Shown: one piece after another, positions 5,924 through 30,205 of the stretch
Numbering within the stretch: the first letter of the stretch is position 1
Layout of the letters: the number at the start of each line of letters is the position of its first letter
Source of the DNA: a virus
Lineage: Duplodnaviria; Heunggongvirae; Uroviricota; Caudoviricetes
Length of the DNA stretch: 37,809 nt
Strand: one strand, 5' to 3'
IMG/VR virus record: IMGVR_UViG_2657245124_000003
Notes under the pieces: generated by a model
The model's database searches: none
What the model was told of the DNA's origin: nothing
The model's input: the letters and a program-made list of their open reading frames with translations, nothing else
Translations under genes and position numbers: made by a program

Positions 5924-8749
5924 ATGACGGCAGAGTACATCAGGGACTGGCAACAACCGCGCCACGCCGTGGGGCGTGAAGGAACGGGGATCCCCGCTCC
6001 TGAATCCGCGCTTTCCTCCTGGCTGGATGCCTACCGGGCAGAGAACGAACGCCGCCAGGAAATGGCTGATGCGGCGTTCTCCGCCACGCCGCTGGGCAAC
6101 CTGATTAATAAAAGCCTGGACGCACAGGAAAAACAGGACAAAACCATCACACTGGCAGGAGACGCCAGAAAACAGGCACGAGGCGCGGTGGATGAAGCCA
6201 TGGCCTCGCTGCACCTGCTGCCGTCCTATCTGCGCGATCCGCTTATTCGCCACCTCTCCTTCCTGCGCAAAAAACAGGAAGCCGATCGCCGGAAAGGCAA
6301 AAAGAGCTGGCAGGCGGAACGCTATGCACGCGGAACCCTGCGCAAAATATTCGAACGTCTGGATCGCACTGACGGACACTGGCTGACACCGGGTTATCGC
6401 TCCCTTGCCGGACGCGAACGCCTGGACGATTTGCTTTACCTGCCGCAGCTCAACAAACACCAGATACAGACGCTGGCCACCATGACGGCGGCGATGTTCA
6501 GCAGCACCTTCGAAAAACTCTGCGATGGCTTTGGCGCGACCGATGGCGAGCTGACCATGGATGTAACGCTGAAGGCGTATCAGATGCTGGCCCGCATGGC
6601 GTTACACCTGCACGCCATGCCTCCACATTATGACGCACTGACAACAGACAAAGACCGGAGGAACGAACCAGACACGGAGCTGCTGCCGGGCGCAATCCTT
6701 CGCCTGACCTGTGCGGAATGGTGGAAACGCAAACTGTGGCTGTTACGTTGCGAGTGGAGAGAAGAACAACTCCGCGCCGCCTGTCTGGTTTCCAGAAAAA
6801 CATCACCCTATCTGAGCCAGGACGCGTTAAGCGAGTTTCGCGCACAGCGCGAGAAAACACGCGATTTCCTGAAAAGTTTCATGCTAGAAAATGAAGACGG
6901 GTTCACGATTGATCTCGAGACGGTGTATTACGCGGGAGTAAGTAACCCGGTTCACCGTAAGGCAGAAATGATGGCCACCATGAAGGGACTGGAACTTCTG
7001 GCCGAAGCCCGTGGCGACAGAGCGGTGTTTCTGACTGTCACCTGCCCGTCAAAATACCACGCAACAACGGAGAACGGTCATCCGAACCCCAAATGGAACG
7101 GGGCCACCATGCGCGACTCCAGCGATTACCTGGTTAACACGTTTTTTGCGGCAGTCCGCAAAAAACTGAACCGCGACGGTCTGCGCTGGTATGGCATCCG
7201 CACGGTGGAGCCTCACCATGACGGCACCGTGCACTGGCATATGATGGTCTTTGCTCATCCGGAAGAAATCGACAGCATCGTGGCCATCACCCGCGATATT
7301 GCCATTCAGGAAGACCGCCACGAGCTGGGCAATGATATTACTCCGCGCTTTAAGGTGGAGTATGTCGACGGCTCAAAAGGCACACCAACCAGCTATATCG
7401 CGACCTACATCGGAAAAAACCTGGACAGCCGCGCCGTGGATGGCATCGACCCGAAAACGGGCAAGCCACGCGTTGACCACGAAACCGGAAAATCAATGGC
7501 CGAGAGCGTGGAACGCGCCATCGGCTGGGCGCGCCTTCACCGGGTCCGCCAGTTCCAGTTCTTTGGTATCCCCTCCCGTCAGGTGTGGCGTGAACTGCGC
7601 CGCCTTGCCAGCCAGATGGCACGCAACCCGGAAGGCCCGCAACGGCTGAAGGATGACGCAATGGACGCGGTACTCGCTGCCGCTGATGCCGGATGTTTTG
7701 CCACCTACATTGAGAAACAGGGTGGCGTACTTGTTCCACGCAAAGACTACCTGATTCGCACCGCCTACGACCTCGCAGATGAGCTGAACGATTACGGTGA
7801 ACAGAGCGTACAGATTTACGGGATCTGGTCGCCACTCATTGGGGAGTCTTCCCGCGTATGCACGCATCCGGATAACTGGAAGCTGGTAAGACGCAAACCG
7901 GAAGCGGAAGACAGCGCCCGCGAAAATGGTTTTGACCTTCAGGGCGGCCCTGCCGCCCCTTGGACTCGTGGCAATAACTGTCCCCGTGTACAGGAAACGG
8001 ACAACAACGGGGCAGAACAGCCGGAAGAACGGCCAGCACCGTGGCCGCAGCTCCCTGACGGCGTTGAAGTGAACGAATGGATGCGCTCACTGAAACGGCA
8101 CGAACGCCGGGCGCTGATGCGTTCGCTTCGTGACAAACAGGCAAAAAACAGCAGTGATGAAATGCAGAGCTGGACACAGAGCCGCAAACAGCAGCGGCCT
8201 TTGCCTGATAACCACGAATTACTCGCTAAAGAATGGCGGGAGTCTGCCGAATCTCTCGGCCTGCATATCGGTGAACAGCAGATGCAGCACCTGCTACGGG
8301 GCGGCAGCCTGTACGTTGACGGCAGCATCATTGCACCGCAGGGATATGAAATTGTACGCAAACCGGATACCCGCCCGGACAGCCGAATCACGCAGCTCTG
8401 GCAGCACCTGAGCCGTAATCACGGCGTAAGCAGCACGGAGATCCGCCATAACCCGGTCGCCAGCTATCTGGAGCAGCTCGGGGCATCAGACCCCGAAGCC
8501 GCCGCACGCCTGGCATCCACAATTCAGCAGGACCAGAACACCATGAAAACTCCCGTTACCGTGCTTTCTGACATGCTGCGCGCCATCCGTGACACAGAGC
8601 ACGCACAAAGAATCAATGAAACCACTGAACGCGCACGCCGCAAGGCTACTTTGCTCCAAAAGAGAGGCAAACAGCACTTTAGTAATCAAAATGATGATGA
8701 GAAAAAACAATTACAAAGTTGGATATGCCTTTTCCATCATGAGGGATGA
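5924..8749 (+). CDS. A: P2 gpA-type rolling-circle replication initiator/endonuclease
   Basis: 941 aa; HUH motif (HDGTVHWHMMVF) and catalytic tyrosine region (PTSYIATYIGKN) typical of P2 A; longer than P2 A at the C-terminus. The true start may be downstream of 5924. Confidence 0.8.
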   Translation: MTAEYIRDWQQPRHAVGREGTGIPAPESALSSWLDAYRAENERRQEMADAAFSATPLGNLINKSLDAQEKQDKTITLAGDARKQARGAVDEAMASLHLLPSYLRDPLIRHLSFLRKKQEADRRKGKKSWQAERYARGTLRKIFERLDRTDGHWLTPGYRSLAGRERLDDLLYLPQLNKHQIQTLATMTAAMFSSTFEKLCDGFGATDGELTMDVTLKAYQMLARMALHLHAMPPHYDALTTDKDRRNEPDTELLPGAILRLTCAEWWKRKLWLLRCEWREEQLRAACLVSRKTSPYLSQDALSEFRAQREKTRDFLKSFMLENEDGFTIDLETVYYAGVSNPVHRKAEMMATMKGLELLAEARGDRAVFLTVTCPSKYHATTENGHPNPKWNGATMRDSSDYLVNTFFAAVRKKLNRDGLRWYGIRTVEPHHDGTVHWHMMVFAHPEEIDSIVAITRDIAIQEDRHELGNDITPRFKVEYVDGSKGTPTSYIATYIGKNLDSRAVDGIDPKTGKPRVDHETGKSMAESVERAIGWARLHRVRQFQFFGIPSRQVWRELRRLASQMARNPEGPQRLKDDAMDAVLAAADAGCFATYIEKQGGVLVPRKDYLIRTAYDLADELNDYGEQSVQIYGIWSPLIGESSRVCTHPDNWKLVRRKPEAEDSARENGFDLQGGPAAPWTRGNNCPRVQETDNNGAEQPEERPAPWPQLPDGVEVNEWMRSLKRHERRALMRSLRDKQAKNSSDEMQSWTQSRKQQRPLPDNHELLAKEWRESAESLGLHIGEQQMQHLLRGGSLYVDGSIIAPQGYEIVRKPDTRPDSRITQLWQHLSRNHGVSSTEIRHNPVASYLEQLGASDPEAAARLASTIQQDQNTMKTPVTVLSDMLRAIRDTEHAQRINETTERARRKATLLQKRGKQHFSNQNDDEKKQLQSWICLFHHEG

Positions 8750-8830
8750 GATGTGAATCGCTAACCGAATATTGTGTTGAATAGAATGCAATTGATATAA
8801 TTCTCCTTAATTCATTGAAAACTGGATTTT

Positions 8831-8846
8831 TTGCATAACTATGCAA
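8831..8846. promoter_or_regulatory. short palindrome upstream of the methyltransferase gene (possible operator)
   Basis: ttgcat-aact-atgcaa inverted repeat in the AT-rich leader about 90 bp upstream of the 8935 start. Confidence 0.2.
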
Positions 8847-8934
8847 ATATCTATGGACGGCGACGATGTTTTTTATCGGGAAAACTCAAGTGCCATGTTA
8901 AGATTATGTTTATTTTTTACTGAGAAAATCGTGG

Positions 8935-9780
8935 ATGACAAAGCCTTCTCATTTTAGAACCCCTCTTCGTTATCCGGGAGGTAAGGCAAAATTCTTGCCA
9001 CATATTGAACAAATACTCCGCAACAATGATCTCATTGGTGGATGTTATGCTGAACCTTATGCAGGTGGAGCCGGTGTAGCATTAGGTTTGCTCCTTAACG
9101 GTCTTGTTGAAAATATCTTCATAAATGATATTGATCCTGCCCTTTATTCTTTTTGGTTTGCAGTGGTTAATCATAACGATCTGTTATGTGAAATGATTGA
9201 TGAAGTTCCTGTGACTATTGAAAATTGGCATACTCAAAAGGAGATACTCCTAAACAATGATAAATATAGTATGCTTGAAGTCGCATTATCAACTTTCTTT
9301 TTAAATAGAACAAACCGTTCAGGAATACTTAAGGCTGGCGTTATTGGAGGGAAAGAACAAAAAGGACCATGGAAGTTAGATGCAAGATTCAACAAAAAAG
9401 AGTTAATTAAAAGGATTGAACTAATTGGTGCATATAAGGAGAAAATTTACGTATCGAATTTTGATGCTGTAGATTTTCTGCTACACCAAAAAGCATTGCT
9501 ACCCCAAAATAGTCTAATATATCTTGATCCACCTTATTATGTTAAAGGAGCAGAGTTATATAGAAATTTTTATAAACATGATGATCATGTAAAAATCGCT
9601 AATACACTACGGGAAATTCAACTACCTTGGGTTGTGTCTTATGACAATGTGCCTGAAATAAAAAGCATATATCATGAATTCAACATGACTGATTATACGC
9701 TTAATTATACTGCACAAGATAAGAAAAAAGGTCTAGAAATTATCATTTATAATCATGGTATAAAAATCCCTGACATTTAA
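8935..9780 (+). CDS. D12-class N6-adenine DNA methyltransferase (Dam-like)
   Basis: 281 aa; motifs YPGGK, EPYAGGAG (FxGxG SAM-binding), FLNRTNRSG and DPPYY (motif IV) in the order characteristic of Dam-family methyltransferases; strongly AT-rich compared with flanking phage genes. Confidence 0.8.
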   Translation: MTKPSHFRTPLRYPGGKAKFLPHIEQILRNNDLIGGCYAEPYAGGAGVALGLLLNGLVENIFINDIDPALYSFWFAVVNHNDLLCEMIDEVPVTIENWHTQKEILLNNDKYSMLEVALSTFFLNRTNRSGILKAGVIGGKEQKGPWKLDARFNKKELIKRIELIGAYKEKIYVSNFDAVDFLLHQKALLPQNSLIYLDPPYYVKGAELYRNFYKHDDHVKIANTLREIQLPWVVSYDNVPEIKSIYHEFNMTDYTLNYTAQDKKKGLEIIIYNHGIKIPDI

Positions 9781-9797
9781 ATTTAAGGATGATATAG

Positions 9798-11495
9798 ATG
9801 ATTAAAGAAATTAGTTTTAAAAAATTTAAGAAACTGATAGATATTGACTTCTCATTCAATGAAGACATCAATATAATATCAGGAACCAATGGGACATGTA
9901 AGACAACATTGCTTCATTTAATTAGCAATGGTTTCCAAATGCCACCATCTCGATCACAAAATTATTCAAATAGTAATTGTGTTAGAGTTATAAAATCTAT
10001 AAACAAAATAGCCAACCCCAAAATGGAAGCAATTGTTAGGGAATCAAAAAATTACACCGATCCGGCAGAGGGAACAAAAGGTGTGTTATTTTCTATTAAC
10101 TATTTGGATCATAGCACACTAGACTTCAGAAAGCACAACTCAAAAAATCCAGACGAAGCGCAACGGTATGCTATCAAACCAGTATACCCACGCGGAAAAG
10201 AAAAACAATCACTTCCAGCTAAACCAGTTTTATATCTTGGATTATCGCGACTATTCCCGATTGGTGAAACTAAAGACGACGCCCTTACAAAAATTCCGTT
10301 AAACCTACCAGAAGAGTATGTTGGTTATATATCGAAAATATATAATGAACTTTTGGGCATTAATATTATAAATATAGAATCAAACAATATCGGAGATTTT
10401 AAAGCTGGCCCATTATTTGATACCGATAACCCAGCAATTGATTCTAATACCATATCATCCGGGGAAGACAATATATTCATTATAATCAAGGCATTAGTTA
10501 GCCTTAGGTATTATTTTGAATCACTTATTCAATCCACTGATCAAAAAGAAAGCATTCTGTTAATAGATGAATTTGATGCCACTTTACATCCTTCTTTACA
10601 GATAAGATTATTAGATAAAATTTATCAATACGCAAAAGATTATAAGATTCAAGTATTTTTCACAACGCACAGTCTGACATTGCTAGAATATGCTTTTCAT
10701 AAAAAATACCATGTTGTCTATCTAATTAACAATATTACAAAGGCTCTGCTTTTAGATAATCCTGACATATTAAAAATAACAATGTATCTGAAAACACAAA
10801 CAAAGGATGAGATATACACAAGGAACAAGATACCAGTTTTCACGGAAGATGAAGAAGCTCGCTTTTTATTTAATGAAATACTTGGTTATTGGATAAGCAA
10901 ATATCCAAATTTTGCTATAGTTAGTAATTCATTTCACTTAATTGATTGTTTCATTGGTGCAGACAATTTAAAAACTATTTTTAATGATTCTCATCTTAAG
11001 GAAACCTCGTTAAAATCAATTTGTATTCTTGATGGAGATCACAGCCCTGAGGATCAGAGAGGAATTATATCACTGCCGGGAGAAAAAGCTCCAGAACAAT
11101 TGATATTTGAGCATTGTGAGCACCTTTATAATACCGACGACTCTTCCTTCTGGGAAAATCAGGATATAATTAACAATGGTTTTTCGAAAGAGTTATACTT
11201 ACTCAAGATACGTCCTCAACTACAATCAATTGAAACTGAAATTCAGAAAAGAAAAGACAACCATGAGTCTACATCCGGTTTAAGAAGAAAATTAAATAAG
11301 AAAATATTCAATCAGCATATTGAATTCTTTAGAATGATTACAAGAAACTGGTTAGACAAACCAGAAAATCAGAAATCTCTCCAGTATTTTTACAATGGAT
11401 TACGATCCTTATTCTACCGGGTTACACCAACAAACGGCATTGACAGAAAAATTTGGGATTTTGACTATAACAAAATCATTAAAGAGGATAAATAA
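9798..11495 (+). CDS. ABC-type ATPase with C-terminal TOPRIM-like region (OLD-family / fused PARIS-like nuclease candidate)
   Basis: 565 aa; Walker A GTNGTCKTT, signature-like SSGEDN, Walker B LLIDEFDATLHP, H-loop FFTTHS; C-terminal region has a conserved acidic patch (VFTEDEE) followed by a DxD-type motif (ILDGDH), consistent with TOPRIM/DUF4435. Only 17 bp from the methyltransferase stop, same strand. Confidence 0.6.
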   Translation: MIKEISFKKFKKLIDIDFSFNEDINIISGTNGTCKTTLLHLISNGFQMPPSRSQNYSNSNCVRVIKSINKIANPKMEAIVRESKNYTDPAEGTKGVLFSINYLDHSTLDFRKHNSKNPDEAQRYAIKPVYPRGKEKQSLPAKPVLYLGLSRLFPIGETKDDALTKIPLNLPEEYVGYISKIYNELLGINIINIESNNIGDFKAGPLFDTDNPAIDSNTISSGEDNIFIIIKALVSLRYYFESLIQSTDQKESILLIDEFDATLHPSLQIRLLDKIYQYAKDYKIQVFFTTHSLTLLEYAFHKKYHVVYLINNITKALLLDNPDILKITMYLKTQTKDEIYTRNKIPVFTEDEEARFLFNEILGYWISKYPNFAIVSNSFHLIDCFIGADNLKTIFNDSHLKETSLKSICILDGDHSPEDQRGIISLPGEKAPEQLIFEHCEHLYNTDDSSFWENQDIINNGFSKELYLLKIRPQLQSIETEIQKRKDNHESTSGLRRKLNKKIFNQHIEFFRMITRNWLDKPENQKSLQYFYNGLRSLFYRVTPTNGIDRKIWDFDYNKIIKEDK

Positions 11496-11735
11496 TGTAT
11501 TCTAATAGAATATAAACATCAAAGCTATATTCTTTACACATATCAAGAGTAAAAAATAATTTAACTTTATACATAACGACCTCTTTTACAAATAAGTAGA
11601 AAAGGTCGTTATAACTCTCATCTCCATAGCATGTAATTTTCTTTGCATATTTTCACATAACAGTCAGGGATGTATTTATAAGCAACGTCGTATACATAGG
11701 CTCAATTTTTCTATAAATAAACACTCCGTTCGGTT

Positions 11736-11762
11736 TGCACAATAGTGCACAAATTTGCACAA
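11736..11762 (+). repeat. three TGCACAA direct repeats at exact 10-bp spacing
   Basis: TGCACAA at 11736, 11746 and 11756, with a fourth copy at 11828 next to an A7-CGCG-T6 palindrome; lies in the gpA-hotspot/Q intergenic region where P2-type cos and packaging signals are expected. Confidence 0.5.
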
Positions 11763-12186
11763 TTTTTTTGAACGACTTTTTGCCCTTCCGGCCCGCATGG
11801 CGGCTGGATCCGTCAAGGATCCGTGCGTGCACAAAAAAACGCGTTTTTTCTGCGCGCAGGTGACGGGGGAACAGCCCGCGTTTCAGGGGGTAAATAGCAT
11901 TCCCTTAACGATGTCGCAGCGACACGACAGAATGGCCGTATTTCTCACGCTGAGCGTGAAAAATACGTGAGGGATTCTGGTTTGATGGGGTGAAAGGTAA
12001 GGCCGTCAAAATCGCACTGAGGCGGCGAGAACATGCAGTCAGCGCAGTGGGATTGCGTAAGAGTCTGACCGTCGATGATGGCAATAAGCAGGAAAGCGTC
12101 GTGAAATTATCTGACTGATACAGGAGCTGGAGAGTCGGGGCATAAATTTTTTATGCCCCGGCGAAGCAGCAGACAAGCGAAGCGCG

Positions 12187-13233
12187 TCAGGATGTGGGCT
12201 GGGTATCTAACAGTGCGTAAGGGTTAAAGCGGATCACCTCTTCGCCAAGCCAGTCATTGATGTGCTTCATGGCCTCCATGACGGGCATCAGCTCGTTAAT
12301 TGCGTAAACCCGCACGGCCTTCTCCACATCACCAAACGCACTTTTTTCGCCCGGCATCGCCCCCATCAGTTGCGGCGGAACGCGGTGCGCAGCCAGCACA
12401 TCATCACGGGATGCCGCCTTAACATTCATGAACTCATCTTTTGCGGTGATCTGCTGGAACGGCAAAATTTGCACCCCCTCTTTGCCCCCGTTGGGCGCAT
12501 GAATGAGCACGTTTTTAAACGCACCACCACCACGTGCCCCCTGTAGCGTTTCTTTCAGGGAGTCCATGCTTTCGCGGTTTACCTGCGCTGCACCGATGTA
12601 GATGATGCACCCGGCGTGGGATCCGTTGTCGTAGTACAGTTTTCTGAACATGTCCGCCGAATGAGAAAGGCTGGCCGAGAGTAATGCGCCAAGATATTCC
12701 GGCATGCCGTAGATTTCCTGGTTAATATCCGGATTCATCAGGTGGCACACTTTGCCAGGACGAAACTGGAACGCGTCCTTGCCATCCTGCACATACCACC
12801 ATGATTCAAGATCGCTTCCGCGTCGCATGTATTTCGCCAGGGCGTGCCGTAATTTAAGCGGTTCGCCGAGCATATTGCTTCGGAGCTCAAGGAATGCGTT
12901 ACCGAACACAAACCAGTCCAGCGCCAGCGCCGAGAAATCCTGCCGGGAAAGCAGCGGGTGCGGGATGTAGCAACCGAGTAATACATTGCGCTTAAAGTAA
13001 AGCGCAGACTGATGCCAGGACGTTTGCCGGGCAGCTCTTGCCAGACCGTACCAGTCCACCGGGGTTTCATACCACCGCCCGTTATCAGCACAGTACATAT
13101 TGTCCAGCAGGTCATGCCCGGTCAGGCGATAAGGACCATCAAATGTGAATGCACTGAGCGATGATTCTTTCCTGAGCGCATCAGCGAGATAAATGCGTGA
13201 ACTCATGCGCGCTTTTTTATTTTTTCTGCTCAT
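12187..13233 (-). CDS. Q: portal protein (P2 gpQ-like)
   Basis: 348 aa (P2 Q is 344 aa); position and divergent orientation relative to O-N-M-L as in P2. Confidence 0.8.
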   Translation of the reverse strand: MSRKNKKARMSSRIYLADALRKESSLSAFTFDGPYRLTGHDLLDNMYCADNGRWYETPVDWYGLARAARQTSWHQSALYFKRNVLLGCYIPHPLLSRQDFSALALDWFVFGNAFLELRSNMLGEPLKLRHALAKYMRRGSDLESWWYVQDGKDAFQFRPGKVCHLMNPDINQEIYGMPEYLGALLSASLSHSADMFRKLYYDNGSHAGCIIYIGAAQVNRESMDSLKETLQGARGGGAFKNVLIHAPNGGKEGVQILPFQQITAKDEFMNVKAASRDDVLAAHRVPPQLMGAMPGEKSAFGDVEKAVRVYAINELMPVMEAMKHINDWLGEEVIRFNPYALLDTQPTS

Positions 13234-19814: not shown

Positions 19815-19956
19815 CCCACCCACATGGGGAAACCTCGGAATATGGGGCGACCGCCTTCTGGATGCACTGGAAACCTGTAACGCGGAGAAACGGGCCATTG
19901 CTGAACTGGATAAGAGAATAGCCGAACTGACACACCAGACGGGAGTAACACAATGA
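19675..19956 (+). CDS. o-spanin lipoprotein (LysC/Rz1-like)
   Basis: MNAPTLCLTLVLLTGCAG has a lipobox (LTGC); Pro-rich mature part; overlaps the i-spanin in another frame. Confidence 0.55.
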   Translation: MNAPTLCLTLVLLTGCAGTQNAPRPAPSVRLIPQTLTMPVTPPPFPDPPTWGNLGIWGDRLLDALETCNAEKRAIAELDKRIAELTHQTGVTQ

Positions 19957-21833
19957 CCAGTAAGAACTTTGCACTGATTACAGCCATGACACAGGCTGAA
20001 CTGACCCGGAAAGTGAATGAATATCTTGCGAAGGGGTGGCATCTTCAGGGGGACACACGGGTAGCTTACGAGCCCGGCACCCCGTGGTATCTCATGCAGG
20101 CCATGGTGGCCGATGGTGCCACCGAGACGCCCTCTGAGCCATTACCAAACAACAAGACGCCGGAATGGTACTACGTGGTTGTGCTTGCCGGGCAGTCCAA
20201 CGGCATGGCTTACGGTGAAGGGCTTCCGTTACCGGATTCTTACGATGCTCCGGATCCGCGCATTAAACAGCTGGCGCGCCGCAGTACGGTAACCCCGGGG
20301 GGAGAGGGTTGTACGTATAACGACATCATCCCGGCTGACCACTGTCTGCATGATGTGCAGGATATGAGTACGCTGAATCATCCGAAGGCGGACCTGAGCA
20401 AAGGTCAGTACGGCTGTGTGGGACAGGGACTTCATATTGCCAAAAAACTACTCCCGTATATCCCGAATAACGCGGGGATCCTGCTGGTACCATGCTGTCG
20501 TGGTGGTTCGGCATTCACTCAGGGCGCGGAGGGAACATTCAGTACGACCACGGGGGCCAGCCAGGATTCGGCGCGCTGGGGTGCGGGTAAGCCGTTATAT
20601 CAGGACCTGATCGCACGCACCAAAGCGGCATTACAGAAGAACCCGAAAAATGTGTTGCTGGCGGTGTGCTGGATGCAGGGCGAATTTGACATGAGCGCTG
20701 CCACCTACGCACAGCAACCGGACCTGTTCACGGCCATGCTGAAGCAGTTCCGTACTGACCTTTCCGGATTTAACGCGCAGTGCCATGGCGGCAGTGCTGC
20801 AGTTATACCGTGGATTTGTGGCGACACGACGTATTACTGGAAAAACACATACGGCACACAGTATGACTCCGTCTACGGCGCGTACAAAAACAGGGAGAGC
20901 GACAACGTTTTCTTTGTGCCGTTCATGACCGACGGTAACGGCAACAACACGCCCACCAACTTACCGGCAGAAGACCCGGATATTGCTGATGCAGGTTATT
21001 ACGGCGCGCAATCCCGTAGTAATGGTAATTGGGTATCGTCAAATCGTCCGACACATTTCAGTTCATGGGCGCGCAGGAGCATTATTTCGGATCGCCTGGC
21101 AACCGCTATTCTGAACGCTGTTGGTCGAACCAGCGCCTTCATCAGCGGTACCGCACCGGAGATTAAACCCTCGCCCGGCGGCGACACTCCATCGGGGCCG
21201 TCTGATGGTGACACATCCGTTCGTACAGTCTCCCTGCTGCCGACAGCCGGAGAGGCTGCTGCGCAGGGCTGGACCATCACCGGCGGCAGTGTTGCGCTGG
21301 AAGATGGTGTGTTTAAGGTTACCAAGCAGAGCAATAAAACTTGGTCCCTGATGCATCCGGTGGATGACGCAGTCTCCCTGCTGACACGGGGCGGCAGACT
21401 GAGCTGTAAGTTTCGACTGTCAGGCGCACTGACCAACAACCAGTTCGGTCTGGGAATTTATCTGTATACCGATGTAGCGTTACCTGACGTCGTGGCGATG
21501 ACCGGGACTGGTAACCCGTTCCTGATGTCGTTCTTCACCCAGACCACAGACGGCAAACTGAATCTGATGCATCACAAGAAAGCCGGAAACACAAAGTTGG
21601 GCGAGTTCGGGAATTACAGTAACGACTGGCAGACGCTGGAGCTGGTGTTCACCGCCGGCAGTGCCACGGTTACTCCGAAACTGAATGGAGTGGCTGGCCC
21701 GGCATTCCAGGTCATAAAAGACAGTCTGACACTGGGGCTGAATGCGCTGACGTTAACTGATATCACTAAAAATGCCGCGTACGGCGTCGATATCGGCAGC
21801 CTGGTGCTGGAAATCAATAATCCCGCAGTATAA
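19953..21833 (+). CDS. NanS-p-like esterase: N-terminal DUF1737 domain, SASA/SGNH-type carbohydrate esterase domain, C-terminal lectin-like domain
   Basis: 626 aa; N-terminus MTSKNFALITAMTQAELTRKVNEYLAKGWHLQG matches the DUF1737 pattern of prophage NanS-p proteins; LAGQSNGMAYGEG carries the GQSN block of sialate O-acetylesterases; inserted between the lysis cassette and tail-completion gene R. Confidence 0.6.
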   Translation: MTSKNFALITAMTQAELTRKVNEYLAKGWHLQGDTRVAYEPGTPWYLMQAMVADGATETPSEPLPNNKTPEWYYVVVLAGQSNGMAYGEGLPLPDSYDAPDPRIKQLARRSTVTPGGEGCTYNDIIPADHCLHDVQDMSTLNHPKADLSKGQYGCVGQGLHIAKKLLPYIPNNAGILLVPCCRGGSAFTQGAEGTFSTTTGASQDSARWGAGKPLYQDLIARTKAALQKNPKNVLLAVCWMQGEFDMSAATYAQQPDLFTAMLKQFRTDLSGFNAQCHGGSAAVIPWICGDTTYYWKNTYGTQYDSVYGAYKNRESDNVFFVPFMTDGNGNNTPTNLPAEDPDIADAGYYGAQSRSNGNWVSSNRPTHFSSWARRSIISDRLATAILNAVGRTSAFISGTAPEIKPSPGGDTPSGPSDGDTSVRTVSLLPTAGEAAAQGWTITGGSVALEDGVFKVTKQSNKTWSLMHPVDDAVSLLTRGGRLSCKFRLSGALTNNQFGLGIYLYTDVALPDVVAMTGTGNPFLMSFFTQTTDGKLNLMHHKKAGNTKLGEFGNYSNDWQTLELVFTAGSATVTPKLNGVAGPAFQVIKDSLTLGLNALTLTDITKNAAYGVDIGSLVLEINNPAV

Positions 21834-27587: not shown

Positions 27588-28064
27588 CTAAGCCGCCCTC
27601 ACGATATAGTTAAATGCAATATTGCGGGGGCGGGTTTCACTACCACCTGTGTTACCAATACTTCCTCGTGAATGAAGCGTTGGTGATGGAATCAAACTCC
27701 CTCCTGTATTTGTGGCATCAAGCCCCCTGCCTTGTGTATATGTTTTTTTGAAAATCGTAGCCAACTCCCATTCATCTTTTGTGTCATATCCATCGTTAGC
27801 TACAACAATATGGCGGTGTTTTTCCAACATCCCGTTTTGAATGCTCAATAAAGCGCGTGCCGCATCAATTCCTCGCCCATCATCCCAGCCACGGATAAAT
27901 TCTCCGCGTAAATCCGGTAATTTATTGGTGGGGTAGGCTTTTGCCAGTTTGGGGTACATTTCAGAAGAAAATGCTGCACCGTTACATTTCAGCCAGCCCG
28001 TTGGTGGTGTTGCTAAGGGCCATGGAACAGGCACACCAACGGGCAGTGCAGAGCCTTCCCCCAA
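27588..28064 (-). other. silent tail-fibre C-terminal cassette 1 (collar domain plus variable tip; no ATG start)
   Basis: Begins at the LGEGSALPVGVPVPWP... junction (TTG called as start), shares about 68 aa with the H collar region, then a unique tip, ending RPRNIAFNYIVRAA; crossover-like site TTCCCCCAAACCAACGTTTTCATGC at 28056-28080. Confidence 0.7.
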
Positions 28065-28074
28065 ACCAACGTTT

Positions 28075-28578
28075 TCATGCGGCTCTTACGATGTAATTGA
28101 ATGCAACGTTGCGAGGGCGAGTTTCTGTACCTACATTTCCACTAATTTTACCAAACTGTTTTATATTACGAGAGCTAATGGCTCGTAGTGAGGAAGGCAC
28201 CCTTAAACCGGGTTCGTCTGTTTTAACTATTCCCCCGTCCCCGTATGTAGCCAGTATTCCAGGGTTTAATCCTTCCCGTGCACTTTCCACGGCAAGTCCG
28301 TTCCCGGTCCATAATTCCATATAGTGTGCATGATCCAAAATTGTGTGTGGCTGCCAATTAAGCAAAGCGCGGCCAGCATCCACCCCGCGCCCATCATCCC
28401 AGCCGCGAATAAATTCTCCCCGTAAATCCGGTAATTTATTTGCGGGGTAGGCTTTTGCCAGTTTGGGGTACATTTCAGAAGAAAATGCTGCACCATTGCA
28501 TTTCAGCCAGCCCGTTGGTGGTGTGGCTGAGGGCCATGGAACGGGCACACCAACAGGCAGCGCAGAACCTTCCCCCAA
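28075..28578 (-). other. silent tail-fibre C-terminal cassette 2
   Basis: Same conserved N-terminal collar segment and C-terminal RPRNVAFNYIVRAA with a different middle region; crossover-like site at 28570-28594 overlapping the stop of cassette 3. Confidence 0.7.
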
Positions 28579-28588
28579 ACCAACGTTT

Positions 28589-29017
28589 TCATGCTGCCCT
28601 TACGATGTAATTAAACGCAATATTACGAGGACGAATGGTTACATAATTGACCCCATCACCTCGTGAAGGCCCTGCAAATGAAAAACGGGAAAAGCTTGGT
28701 TGGTTAGAAACAATTTGGTCATAGTTATTGATTGAATGACCAGACCCAATGTCGAAATTACCTCCGTAATGAGAAAAACTTGTACCATCCTGCCCTGAAA
28801 GCAGGGTACGTCCCGCATCAATCCCGCGCCCATCATCCCAGCCACGGATAAATTCACCGCGTAAATCCGGTAATTTATTGGTGGGATAAGCCCTTGCCAG
28901 TCTGGGATACATTTCAGAAGAAAATGCTGCGCCGTTACATTTCAGCCACCCCGTTGGTGGTGTTGCTGAGGACCACGGAACGGGCACACCAACGGGCAGC
29001 GCAGAGCCTTTCCCCAA
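28589..29017 (-). other. silent tail-fibre C-terminal cassette 3
   Basis: Same architecture; crossover-like site at 29009-29033. Confidence 0.7.
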
Positions 29018-29027
29018 ACCAACGTTT

Positions 29028-29591
29028 TCATGCTGCCCTTACGATGTAATTAAACGCAATGTTGCGTGGGCGGTTTTCGTTTGCAGTTGGAACAATTTTT
29101 GAAGCATCAAGGCCAATCACTTTTGGGTAAACAACGCCGTCTGTCCTTTCTGTCACCATACTTCTGACTAAGGAGAAATAACTATTGTTTGTTGAGGAAT
29201 TTAAAGGCACCACTGCCCCCTTAAACGAGCCTACTGATTCCCATATTGAATAATTTTCAGTGTTTACAGTCTTGAACTCACCATAGATATTACGTATGGC
29301 ATCACCTTGAGCGGATAATATTGTTCTCCCCGCATCCGCACTACGTCCATCATCCCAGCCACGAATAAATTCACCCCGTAAATCCGGTAATTTATTGGTG
29401 GGGTAAGCCTTTGCCAGTCCGGGATACATTTCAGAAGAAAATGCTGCGCCGTTACATTTCAGCCAGCCCGTTGGTGGTGTTGCTGAGGGCCACGGAACGG
29501 GCACACCAACAGGCAGCGCAGAACCTTCCCCCAAACCAACGTTTTCGTTTTTATCCCTACCTATACCAACTATGTATTTTTCACGAAACAA
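29028..29591 (-). other. silent tail-fibre C-terminal cassette 4
   Basis: Same architecture; the conserved segment starts at about 29534; crossover-like site at 29526-29551; the upstream extension to 29591 is probably not translated. Confidence 0.65.
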
Positions 29592-29605
29592 AGAGGATGT
29601 TTTTT

Positions 29606-30205
29606 ATGCAAATTGGCTATATTCGTGTGTCAACAAATGACCAGAACACGGATTTACAACGCAATGCACTGAACTGCGCAGGATGTGAACTGATTTTTGA
29701 AGATAAAATCAGCGGAACGAAATCAGCCAGACCGGGATTGAAAAAACTGCTCAGAACGCTATCAGAAGGAGATACGCTGGTTGTCTGGAAGCTGGACAGA
29801 CTGGGCAGAAGTATGAAACACCTGATCACGCTTATTGAGGAATTGCGGGAAAAAGGTGTTAATTTCCGTAGTCTGACGGACAGCATTGACACATCAACAC
29901 CCATGGGGCGTTTCTTTTTTCACGTCATGGGGGCTTTAGCCGAAATGGAACGTGAATTAATTGTAGAGCGTACACTGGCCGGGCTGGCAGCAGCACGCGC
30001 ACAAGGACGCATTGGCGGACGTCGCCCGAAGTTGACAAAAGAACAACACGAGCAAATAGCGAGGCTGATTAAAAACGGTCATGACAGGAAACAACTGGCG
30101 ATCATTTACGACATCGGCATATCGACGATTTATCGTTATCACCCTGTAGGCGATATACAGGCTGAAGAAACAACCAGGCAGACTCAGGAAAATGAAAACC
30201 GCTAA
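29606..30205 (+). CDS. serine recombinase, DNA invertase (Hin/Gin/Cin/Pin family)
   Basis: 199 aa; MQIGYIRVSTNDQNTDLQRNAL...VVWKLDRLGRSMKHLI...C-terminal HTH (GISTIYRY) is the resolvase/invertase signature with the catalytic Ser in the IRVST motif. Confidence 0.85.
   Translation: MQIGYIRVSTNDQNTDLQRNALNCAGCELIFEDKISGTKSARPGLKKLLRTLSEGDTLVVWKLDRLGRSMKHLITLIEELREKGVNFRSLTDSIDTSTPMGRFFFHVMGALAEMERELIVERTLAGLAAARAQGRIGGRRPKLTKEQHEQIARLIKNGHDRKQLAIIYDIGISTIYRYHPVGDIQAEETTRQTQENENR

Follow-up and report, generated by a model that had tools for sequence, protein, structure and literature searches.

The gene island at the P2 hotspot

The DNA analyzed here, called the window throughout, is a stretch of 37,809 nucleotides (nt) recorded in IMG/VR as a virus of the Caudoviricetes (IMGVR_UViG_2657245124_000003). 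It is a P2-like prophage with identifiable genes for capsid scaffold, major capsid, terminase, portal, gpA, tail proteins, and gpD. The subject of the study is an island of ~3 kb between gpA and the portal gene that encodes a DNA methyltransferase and a protein combining an ABC ATPase with a TOPRIM-like domain, and the pair is read here as a putative relative of the two-gene defense system PD-λ-5 in which the effector has been exchanged. P2 itself has tin and old at the gpA-Q site, and two independent studies found this hotspot to be rich in anti-phage cargo, with the tested cargo genes being overwhelmingly anti-phage (PMC9122126, PMC9519451). The GC content is 0.28-0.36 across positions 9001-11500, compared with 0.53-0.60 in both flanks, and rises again above 0.5 past ~11800. 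Only two credible open reading frames (ORFs) are found in the island, both on the plus strand: 8935-9780 (281 amino acids, aa) and 9798-11495 (565 aa). The list of ORFs contained no further one of at least 50 aa with coding potential in the island. A preliminary description of this DNA had placed an AT-rich pair of genes with a 17-nt gap at the tin/old position between gpA and the portal gene, which agrees with the coordinates, the GC profile, the Pfam matches of the flanking genes, and the literature on the hotspot. The island and its borders are organized as follows:

5924-8749, plus strand: gpA, P2-type replication endonuclease, 941 aa, left flank (Pfam Phage_GPA, E 2e-130)
8750-8934, plus strand: AT-rich leader 5' of the methyltransferase gene, where the cassette promoter is presumed to lie (drop in GC content)
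8935-9780, plus strand: DNA methyltransferase, D12/α class, PD-λ-5_B clade, 281 aa (Pfam and PADLOC matches)
9781-9797, plus strand: intergenic spacer of 17 nt, operon-like (ORF coordinates)
9798-10787, plus strand: ATPase-TOPRIM protein, N-terminal ABC ATPase domain, residues 1-330
10788-11087, plus strand: ATPase-TOPRIM protein, TOPRIM-like nuclease core, residues ~331-430
11088-11495, plus strand: ATPase-TOPRIM protein, C-terminal helical domain, residues ~431-565, and stop codon (secondary structure of the model, invariant columns)
11496-11770, no strand assigned: AT-rich tail of the island (inverted repeat and terminator-like hairpin)
12187-13233, minus strand: portal protein gpQ, P2-type, right flank (Pfam Phage_portal, E 1.1e-17)

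The methyltransferase

The 281-aa protein matched the Pfam family MethyltransfD12 (PF02086, E 1.3e-20) and carries an S-adenosylmethionine-binding motif (E40-P-Y-A-G-G-A-G47, nt 9052-9075) and a catalytic motif (D198-P-P-Y201, nt 9526-9537). Residues E40, G44, G45, D198, P199, and P200 were invariant in an alignment of 31 sequences of the family. The best match of the protein was the PADLOC model PD-Lambda-5_B (PDLC04018, E 8.7e-122), with residues 6-280 aligned to profile positions 3-277 of 291. The preliminary description had called the enzyme a Dam-like N6-adenine methyltransferase of the D12 class. The D12 assignment held, but a score of 70.4 bits against the cut-off of 114.85 of the NCBIfam dam model (TIGR00571) places the protein outside the Dam subfamily. 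The nearest solved relative is M.CbeI (7M6B, profile E 5e-34, compared with 1e-8 for the structures of E. coli Dam), an α-class N4-cytosine methyltransferase according to its depositors. Because M.CbeI also bears a DPPY motif and is an N4-cytosine enzyme, the sequence alone leaves the choice between N6-methyladenine and N4-methylcytosine undecided, and "Dam-like N6-adenine" is best taken as a family label only.

PD-λ-5 is a validated, unusually broad E. coli defense that consists of a "ParB/HEPN" protein (A) and a methyltransferase (B), which its authors termed a compacted "RM+Abi" (restriction–modification plus abortive infection) system (PMC9519451). Its cloning needed a host deleted for the mrr region, implying that the methyltransferase is active (PMC9519451). 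The PD-λ-5_B identity of the window methyltransferase was overlooked in the preliminary description; it makes the locus a relative, with a swapped effector, of a system that has been validated.

The ATPase-TOPRIM protein

The 565-aa protein begins, as previously proposed, with an ABC ATPase domain, which contains a Walker A motif (K35, nt 9900-9902), a signature motif (S220-G-E-D224), a Walker B motif (D257-E258, nt 10566-10571), and an H-loop (H291). The TOPRIM core carries E350 (nt 10845-10847), D412 (nt 11031-11033), and D414 (nt 11037-11039). The hallmarks E350/D351 and D412-G-D414 were invariant in 36 close homologues and also in a second subfamily with only ~26% identity. Conserved residues of the C-terminal helical domain are W452, G494, R497, K501, F504, and W518. 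Inserts with low confidence in the ATPase comprise residues 74-88, 151-168, and 195-221. The best full-length Foldseek matches were the retron Eco8 OLD nuclease, GajA, and TsOLD (E 4e-11 to 2e-9), and the fold matches as a group are OLD, PARIS, and Gabija nucleases. Both features by which the OLD family is recognized are thus found in the protein: an N-terminal ABC-type ATPase with Walker A, signature, Walker B, and H-loop, and a C-terminal TOPRIM fold with a catalytic Glu and a DxD motif.

The sequence-family searches gave a different picture. Neither Pfam nor NCBIfam returned a TOPRIM, OLD, or DUF4435 match for the protein, the C-terminal 235 residues had no meaningful Pfam match at E ≤ 1, and a profile of the C-terminal part alone found nothing meaningful among all PDB sequences. 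The TOPRIM assignment is accordingly based on fold and motifs, and the TOPRIM-like C-terminal region of the preliminary description stands in that sense but not as a match to a sequence family. An alignment of the family profile with P2 Old (hhalign) covered the Walker B region alone and says nothing on the TOPRIM domain. The best PADLOC match was HEC-04 (E 1.3e-16, 58 bits), a partial match from Walker B into the TOPRIM region, and the AriA and AriAB models matched partially and over generic ATPase motifs only (E ~1e-15). PADLOC v2 holds no dedicated model for this ATPase, the corresponding PHROGs entry (phrog_3940) has the label function unknown, and relatives are named "AAA family ATPase" or "ATP-dependent nuclease" at NCBI. 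The names PD-λ-5, PARIS, AbiL, Septu, and Gabija were considered for the locus and rejected, as the matches stop at generic ATPase motifs and the locus lacks the partners that define these systems. Overall, the predicted fold and the conserved motifs indicate that the 565-aa protein functions like an OLD-family ATPase-TOPRIM nuclease, without being a sequence-level member of any described OLD class. Its modeled resemblance to AriB may reflect a similar way of working rather than family membership.

Linkage of the two genes

The association of the two genes was surveyed from both sides. On the ATPase side, a profile scan with one genome per species identified 80 loci with ATPases that are 36-72% identical. 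The hosts include Proteobacteria, Firmicutes, Actinobacteria, Spirochaetes, Planctomycetes, Kiritimatiellia, Tenericutes, and one archaeon, which is methanogen-related; among them are Enterobacterales, Pasteurellaceae, Neisseria, Rhizobium, many Firmicutes, Collinsella, Brachyspira, Treponema, and Mucispirillum. A methyltransferase homologue (33-58% identity) was present in 72 of the 80 loci, and of the remaining eight, seven end at a contig end just past the ATPase gene and one is cut at its 5' end. Every locus with a readable context (72/72) therefore has the methyltransferase beside the ATPase, and an intact ATPase without a methyltransferase was never seen among the surveyed loci. The two genes are same-strand neighbors less than 200 nt apart in 60 loci, with the ATPase gene first in 53 and the methyltransferase gene first in seven, as in the window and in Pantoea. 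The intergenic spacer of homologous loci is usually ~0-80 nt or a short overlap, and in ~60 of the 72 loci the methyltransferase is the sole neighbor.

On the methyltransferase side, the viral contigs of IMG/VR were examined for the partners of two sets, 54 methyltransferases that fall in the PD-λ-5_B clade and 26 D12 methyltransferases that are more distant. A partner was found for 49 of the 54 clade members: PD-λ-5_A in 29 cases, the ATPase-TOPRIM protein in 18, and both in two. None of the 26 distant methyltransferases had either partner. Two of the five partnerless clade members lie at a contig start. Clade methyltransferases without either known partner adjoining were observed on the contigs L117, L127, and L138, and L127 has an unknown ORF of 379 aa directly upstream of the methyltransferase gene that could be a third type of partner.

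The two proteins also diverged together (Mantel r 0.64 for pairwise distances, n = 67, with 0 of 2,000 permutations reaching r). In four loci the ATPase gene is frameshifted or truncated beside an intact methyltransferase gene and the reverse was found in 0 of 71, a bias that would be expected of a nuclease that does harm when the methyltransferase is missing. Judged by these comparisons, the two genes form a coupled unit and are not independent. The coupled methyltransferase/OLD-like module that was one of two readings in the preliminary description is supported by the readable loci, the viral contigs, the co-divergence, and the asymmetry of decay, and its alternative of independent genes is rejected by co-occurrence and co-divergence. 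Rare co-occurrence, or a missing TOPRIM fold or catalytic residues, had been named there as grounds for abandoning the module; co-occurrence proved regular, and both the fold and the residues were found.

A methyltransferase clade with exchangeable partners

The window methyltransferase is 48-53% identical to the methyltransferases of genuine PD-λ-5 loci and 51-57% identical to other ATPase-linked ones, and the methyltransferases of both locus types match PD-Lambda-5_B at ~1e-122. The difference lies in the partner. PD-Lambda-5_A models are absent from the 25 best PADLOC matches of the 565-aa protein, and BLASTP detected no similarity between this protein and a genuine PD-λ-5_A protein (L004). 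Four distant genomes (L018, L048, L077, and L078) carry the order ATPase-TOPRIM, PD-λ-5_A, methyltransferase (PADLOC E 5e-30 to 2e-269), and both effector partners also occur together on the two viral contigs mentioned above. One methyltransferase clade thus serves interchangeable and sometimes stacked effectors, each of which is an NTPase or DNA-binding module joined to a nuclease module.

Distribution

The whole island was found with at least 98% identity in 15 of 5,426 complete E. coli genomes, labeled "DNA adenine methylase | AAA family ATPase" every time; FDAARGOS_1285, AR_0013, and RM14723 are examples. Megablast found no match to the island among 50,697 deposited phage genomes, and a later protein-level search of deposited records gave distant copies of the pair in a Peduoviridae Vibrio phage, a Streptococcus phage, the Citrobacter phage phiNP, and a Bacillus plasmid. 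In phiNP (OR565852.1; L167:4233-5048) an unannotated ORF that is 50% identical to the window methyltransferase directly follows an annotated "AAA family ATPase." Further carriers of the pair are an E. coli integrative and conjugative element (ICE) and an integrase island. The ATPase family comprises 440 representative clusters (50% identity) at E ≤ 1e-30 among 1.84 billion representatives.

Two loci in Rhizobium / Pseudorhizobium (L054:1222-7737 and L055:1174-7695) have a four-gene arrangement, in which a HerA-like ATPase (PADLOC HerA, E 4e-23) and an unknown protein of ~500 aa are encoded between the methyltransferase (33% identical to that of the window) and the ATPase-TOPRIM protein. This arrangement may be a larger variant of the system.

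Flanks of the island and other features of the window

The annotation of a 99.7%-identical E. coli prophage names gpA "replication endonuclease," and the portal gene is labeled "phage portal protein" in the matching E. coli prophage. In a DNA alignment of the gpA-proximal island boundary with a PD-λ-5-bearing P2 prophage, the backbones differ. The gpA protein has 941 aa compared with 761 aa in P2, its Pfam GPA domain covers residues 179-503 only, and its long uncharacterized C-terminal extension abuts the island directly. The promoter of the cassette would lie in the leader at 8750-8934; a consensus scan found no promoter-like site on the plus strand within this leader, and over the whole island the number of such sites did not exceed the shuffled expectation. 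Downstream of the genes, an inverted repeat (11573-11589/11596-11612, arms of 17 nt with 88% complementarity and a 6-nt loop) lies 78 nt past the ATPase stop codon. As this repeat lacks a T run, it does not qualify as a canonical intrinsic terminator. A terminator-like hairpin at 11745-11760 is followed by a T run.

Elsewhere in the window, positions 27588-30205 contain four consecutive minus-strand ORF fragments of 158, 167, 142, and 187 aa, each of which starts with TTG. Phage tail-collar domains are present in the two fragments that were scanned (27588-28064 and 29028-29591), and a Hin/Gin-type serine invertase (29411-30205; Resolvase, E 3e-51, and HTH_7) adjoins them. The region looks like an invertible tail-fiber cassette for host range, as in Mu and P1. 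In the late-gene block, a 626-aa ORF (19953-21833) with DUF1737, a SASA sialate/carbohydrate acetylesterase domain (E 2e-12), and DUF6645 may be a moron that modifies surface polysaccharides; the lambdoid prophage of L002, which is unrelated, likewise has a gene labeled "SASA family carbohydrate esterase." A second AT-rich patch (292-2104, GC content 0.38-0.39 at 501-1500) lies by a helix-turn-helix repressor-like gene (1700-2104) and an N-terminal integrase fragment (292-651). Its ORFs encode a protein of 216 aa (1034-1684; phrog_5825, function unknown, no Pfam match) and a DUF2511 protein (657-1004), and the patch may be further cargo for lysogenic conversion.

Proposed mechanism and alternative explanations

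The cassette is probably an anti-phage module of the restriction–modification (RM) type carried as cargo of the P2 gpA-Q hotspot, a reading to which we assign a probability of roughly 0.7. The methyltransferase would mark host and prophage DNA at a short motif, the ABC-ATPase head of the partner would bind and interrogate DNA using ATP, and the TOPRIM domain (E350, D412, D414) would be a nuclease that is unleashed on DNA without the mark, for example incoming phage DNA. The ATPase would presumably be the part that reads the methylation state. Self-protection, sensing, and the anti-phage role are what we infer from the gene coupling, the hotspot, and the validated sister system PD-λ-5. With respect to the substrate, GajA and the retron Eco8 OLD protein cut DNA (PMC8136825, PMC12887533), as does TsOLD (PMC10568477), and DNA is slightly favored over tRNA.

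Several points weigh against this reading. Both P2 Old (bioRxiv 10.64898/2026.07.10.737580, a 2026 preprint) and AriB (PMC11464382) are tRNases under the control of an ATPase sensor that cleave tRNA and not DNA. What the OLD-family proteins characterized to date sense is a DNA structure or a phage protein and not the methylation state. The protection by PD-λ-5 is strongest against T-even phages (PMC9519451), which is unusual for a classical restriction enzyme and hints at something other than plain cleavage at sites. Linkage shows that the two genes are functionally coupled, not which of them depends on the other, and the asymmetry of decay comes from four loci only, some of them metagenome bins, where the frameshifts may be assembly errors. 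Phage defense, toxicity of the ATPase alone, and self-protection by methylation are themselves deductions.

A serious rival is methylation-gated abortive infection, because AriB and P2 Old are tRNases and the alternative partner of the methyltransferase clade has a HEPN domain. HEPN domains are usually RNases. The ATPase would sense unmethylated DNA and the TOPRIM domain would then act as a tRNase that stops translation, with PD-λ-5_A doing likewise through its HEPN RNase. This explanation has the same gene coupling as the RM-like module and differs only in the substrate of the effector and in the outcome; it is regarded as possible, though not as the expected outcome. A wider version of it, also held tentatively and with the odds against it, would make the PD-λ-5_B clade the hub of a modular family built as an "epigenetic self-mark plus plug-in suicide effector," in which an NTPase sensor licenses an RNA-directed nuclease on unmarked DNA. 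The sensor may be the ABC ATPase in the window and a ParB-like domain in PD-λ-5_A, and the nuclease may be a TOPRIM tRNase or a HEPN RNase.

The remaining explanations loosen or redirect the tie between the two genes. The ATPase-TOPRIM protein could be a PARIS-like guard that senses a phage anti-restriction or anti-methylation factor, such as a DNA mimic or a methyltransferase inhibitor, with the methyltransferase as bait or as a separate layer. PARIS (AriA/AriB) is triggered by Ocr, OLD-type ABC-TOPRIM modules are often back-up effectors within systems based on methylation, BREX and Hma for example (PMC12839542; bioRxiv 10.1101/2024.01.29.577857), and the ATPase-TOPRIM gene stands beside a complete PD-λ-5 in four loci, an add-on pattern. 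However, where the methyltransferase is the sole neighbor there is no restriction component to guard, a guard would have no need to be tied obligately to a single narrow clade of methyltransferases or to co-diverge with it, and the AriA and AriAB models match nothing beyond generic ATPase motifs. A guard is therefore unlikely. Still less probable is a purely selfish addiction module that stabilizes the mobile element by post-segregational killing and has no meaningful anti-phage role. Type II RM pairs can act as addiction modules, the asymmetry of decay is as nuclease toxicity predicts, and the pair is found on mobile elements; but the cargo of this hotspot is overwhelmingly anti-phage where tested (PMC9122126, PMC9519451), the sister system PD-λ-5 broadly protects against phage, and addiction and defense are not mutually exclusive. 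The least probable explanation, and one to be given very little credence, is that two independent cargo genes happen to adjoin: an orphan phage methyltransferase, for epigenetic regulation or for protection of P2 DNA from host restriction, and a stand-alone Class 1 OLD-type gene. Each kind of gene is found elsewhere without the other, P2 old at the same hotspot consists of one gene, and a few clade methyltransferases (L117, L127, L138) have no recognizable partner. Such independence is at odds with a pair that persists in all readable loci across many phyla and on prophage, ICE, plasmid, and chromosome, with the co-divergence and clade-specific association of the two proteins, and with the lack, among the loci surveyed, of any intact ATPase without a methyltransferase.

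Significance

No description of a methyltransferase paired with an OLD/TOPRIM ATPase was found in the literature, in agreement with the preliminary description, which knew no name for the pairing; an earlier mention in a comparative-genomics catalogue is possible. If the RM-like reading is true, the cassette widens the biology of the OLD family and that of RM systems together: it represents a fifth, methyltransferase-linked genetic context for ABC-ATPase/TOPRIM nucleases that is widespread yet uncalled by current defense finders, and PD-λ-5 would be one arm of a modular family with one methyltransferase clade and interchangeable effectors. It would also provide a simple two-gene E. coli model for self/non-self discrimination by machines of the OLD, Gabija, and PARIS type, one in which the gene for the self-mark is the immediate neighbor and can be eliminated by genetic means. 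The import would be greatest if the ATPase proves to read methylation state. Were the RNA-directed hub correct instead, the system would perform methylation-gated abortive infection rather than DNA restriction, would include the first OLD-type protein triggered by an absent base modification, and would directly answer how some OLD/ABC-TOPRIM systems separate self from non-self. The exact island in ~0.3% of complete E. coli genomes, with a sister subfamily in more, bears on the prediction of phage host range.

Comparison with known systems

OLD proteins are classified by gene context as solitary (class 1), with a UvrD-like helicase (class 2), with a retron reverse transcriptase (class 3), or as split AriA/AriB (class 4) (PMC10568477, PMC6755086). 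The window protein resembles the family in its N-terminal ABC ATPase, its C-terminal TOPRIM domain with E...DxD, and a prophage hotspot that is the same as that of P2 old. In contrast, no OLD-specific sequence model matches it and the similarity to P2 Old is confined to Walker B. The window family is not solitary and lacks a UvrD-like helicase, a retron reverse transcriptase, and a split AriA/AriB; its partner is a methyltransferase, a context that is not among the four published classes. The class-1 OLD protein that had been suggested earlier is at odds with the constant methyltransferase neighbor, and the fused PARIS-like protein suggested beside it with the absence of a DUF4435 match and with AriA/AriAB matches to ATPase motifs only.

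HEC-04 is an ABC ATPase-TOPRIM fusion embedded in Hma whose defense needs the Walker A residue and the E/D/D residues (bioRxiv 10.1101/2024.01.29.577857). It shares with the window protein the presence of both domains in one polypeptide and the tie to a methylation-based system. The similarity is weak and partial, however, and HEC-04 resides in the multi-gene Hma and defends alone, whereas the window family has a PD-λ-5_B-type methyltransferase as its dedicated partner.

The cassette shares with Type II RM systems a methyltransferase tightly linked to a nuclease-type gene, the location on mobile elements, the lack of a nuclease without a methyltransferase, and the earlier decay of the nuclease; the obligate linkage of methyltransferase and nuclease genes, by which Type II systems are recognized, is found here. 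It differs in that the putative restriction part is an ATP-dependent ABC-ATPase/TOPRIM protein and not an endonuclease of the PD-(D/E)XK, HNH, GIY-YIG, or PLD type, that the substrate of this protein might be RNA, and that site-specific cleavage is only putative.

The closest relationship is to PD-λ-5, with which the cassette has in common the methyltransferase clade, the two-gene logic of a methyltransferase and one large NTPase/nuclease-type protein, and the niche, including the P2 hotspot (L004). Gene A is absent from the window and an ABC-ATPase/TOPRIM partner is present instead, so that tools requiring A and B would miss the locus. The gene content is best read as that of a PD-λ-5 variant with a swapped effector, in which the ATPase-TOPRIM protein would replace the ParB/HEPN protein.

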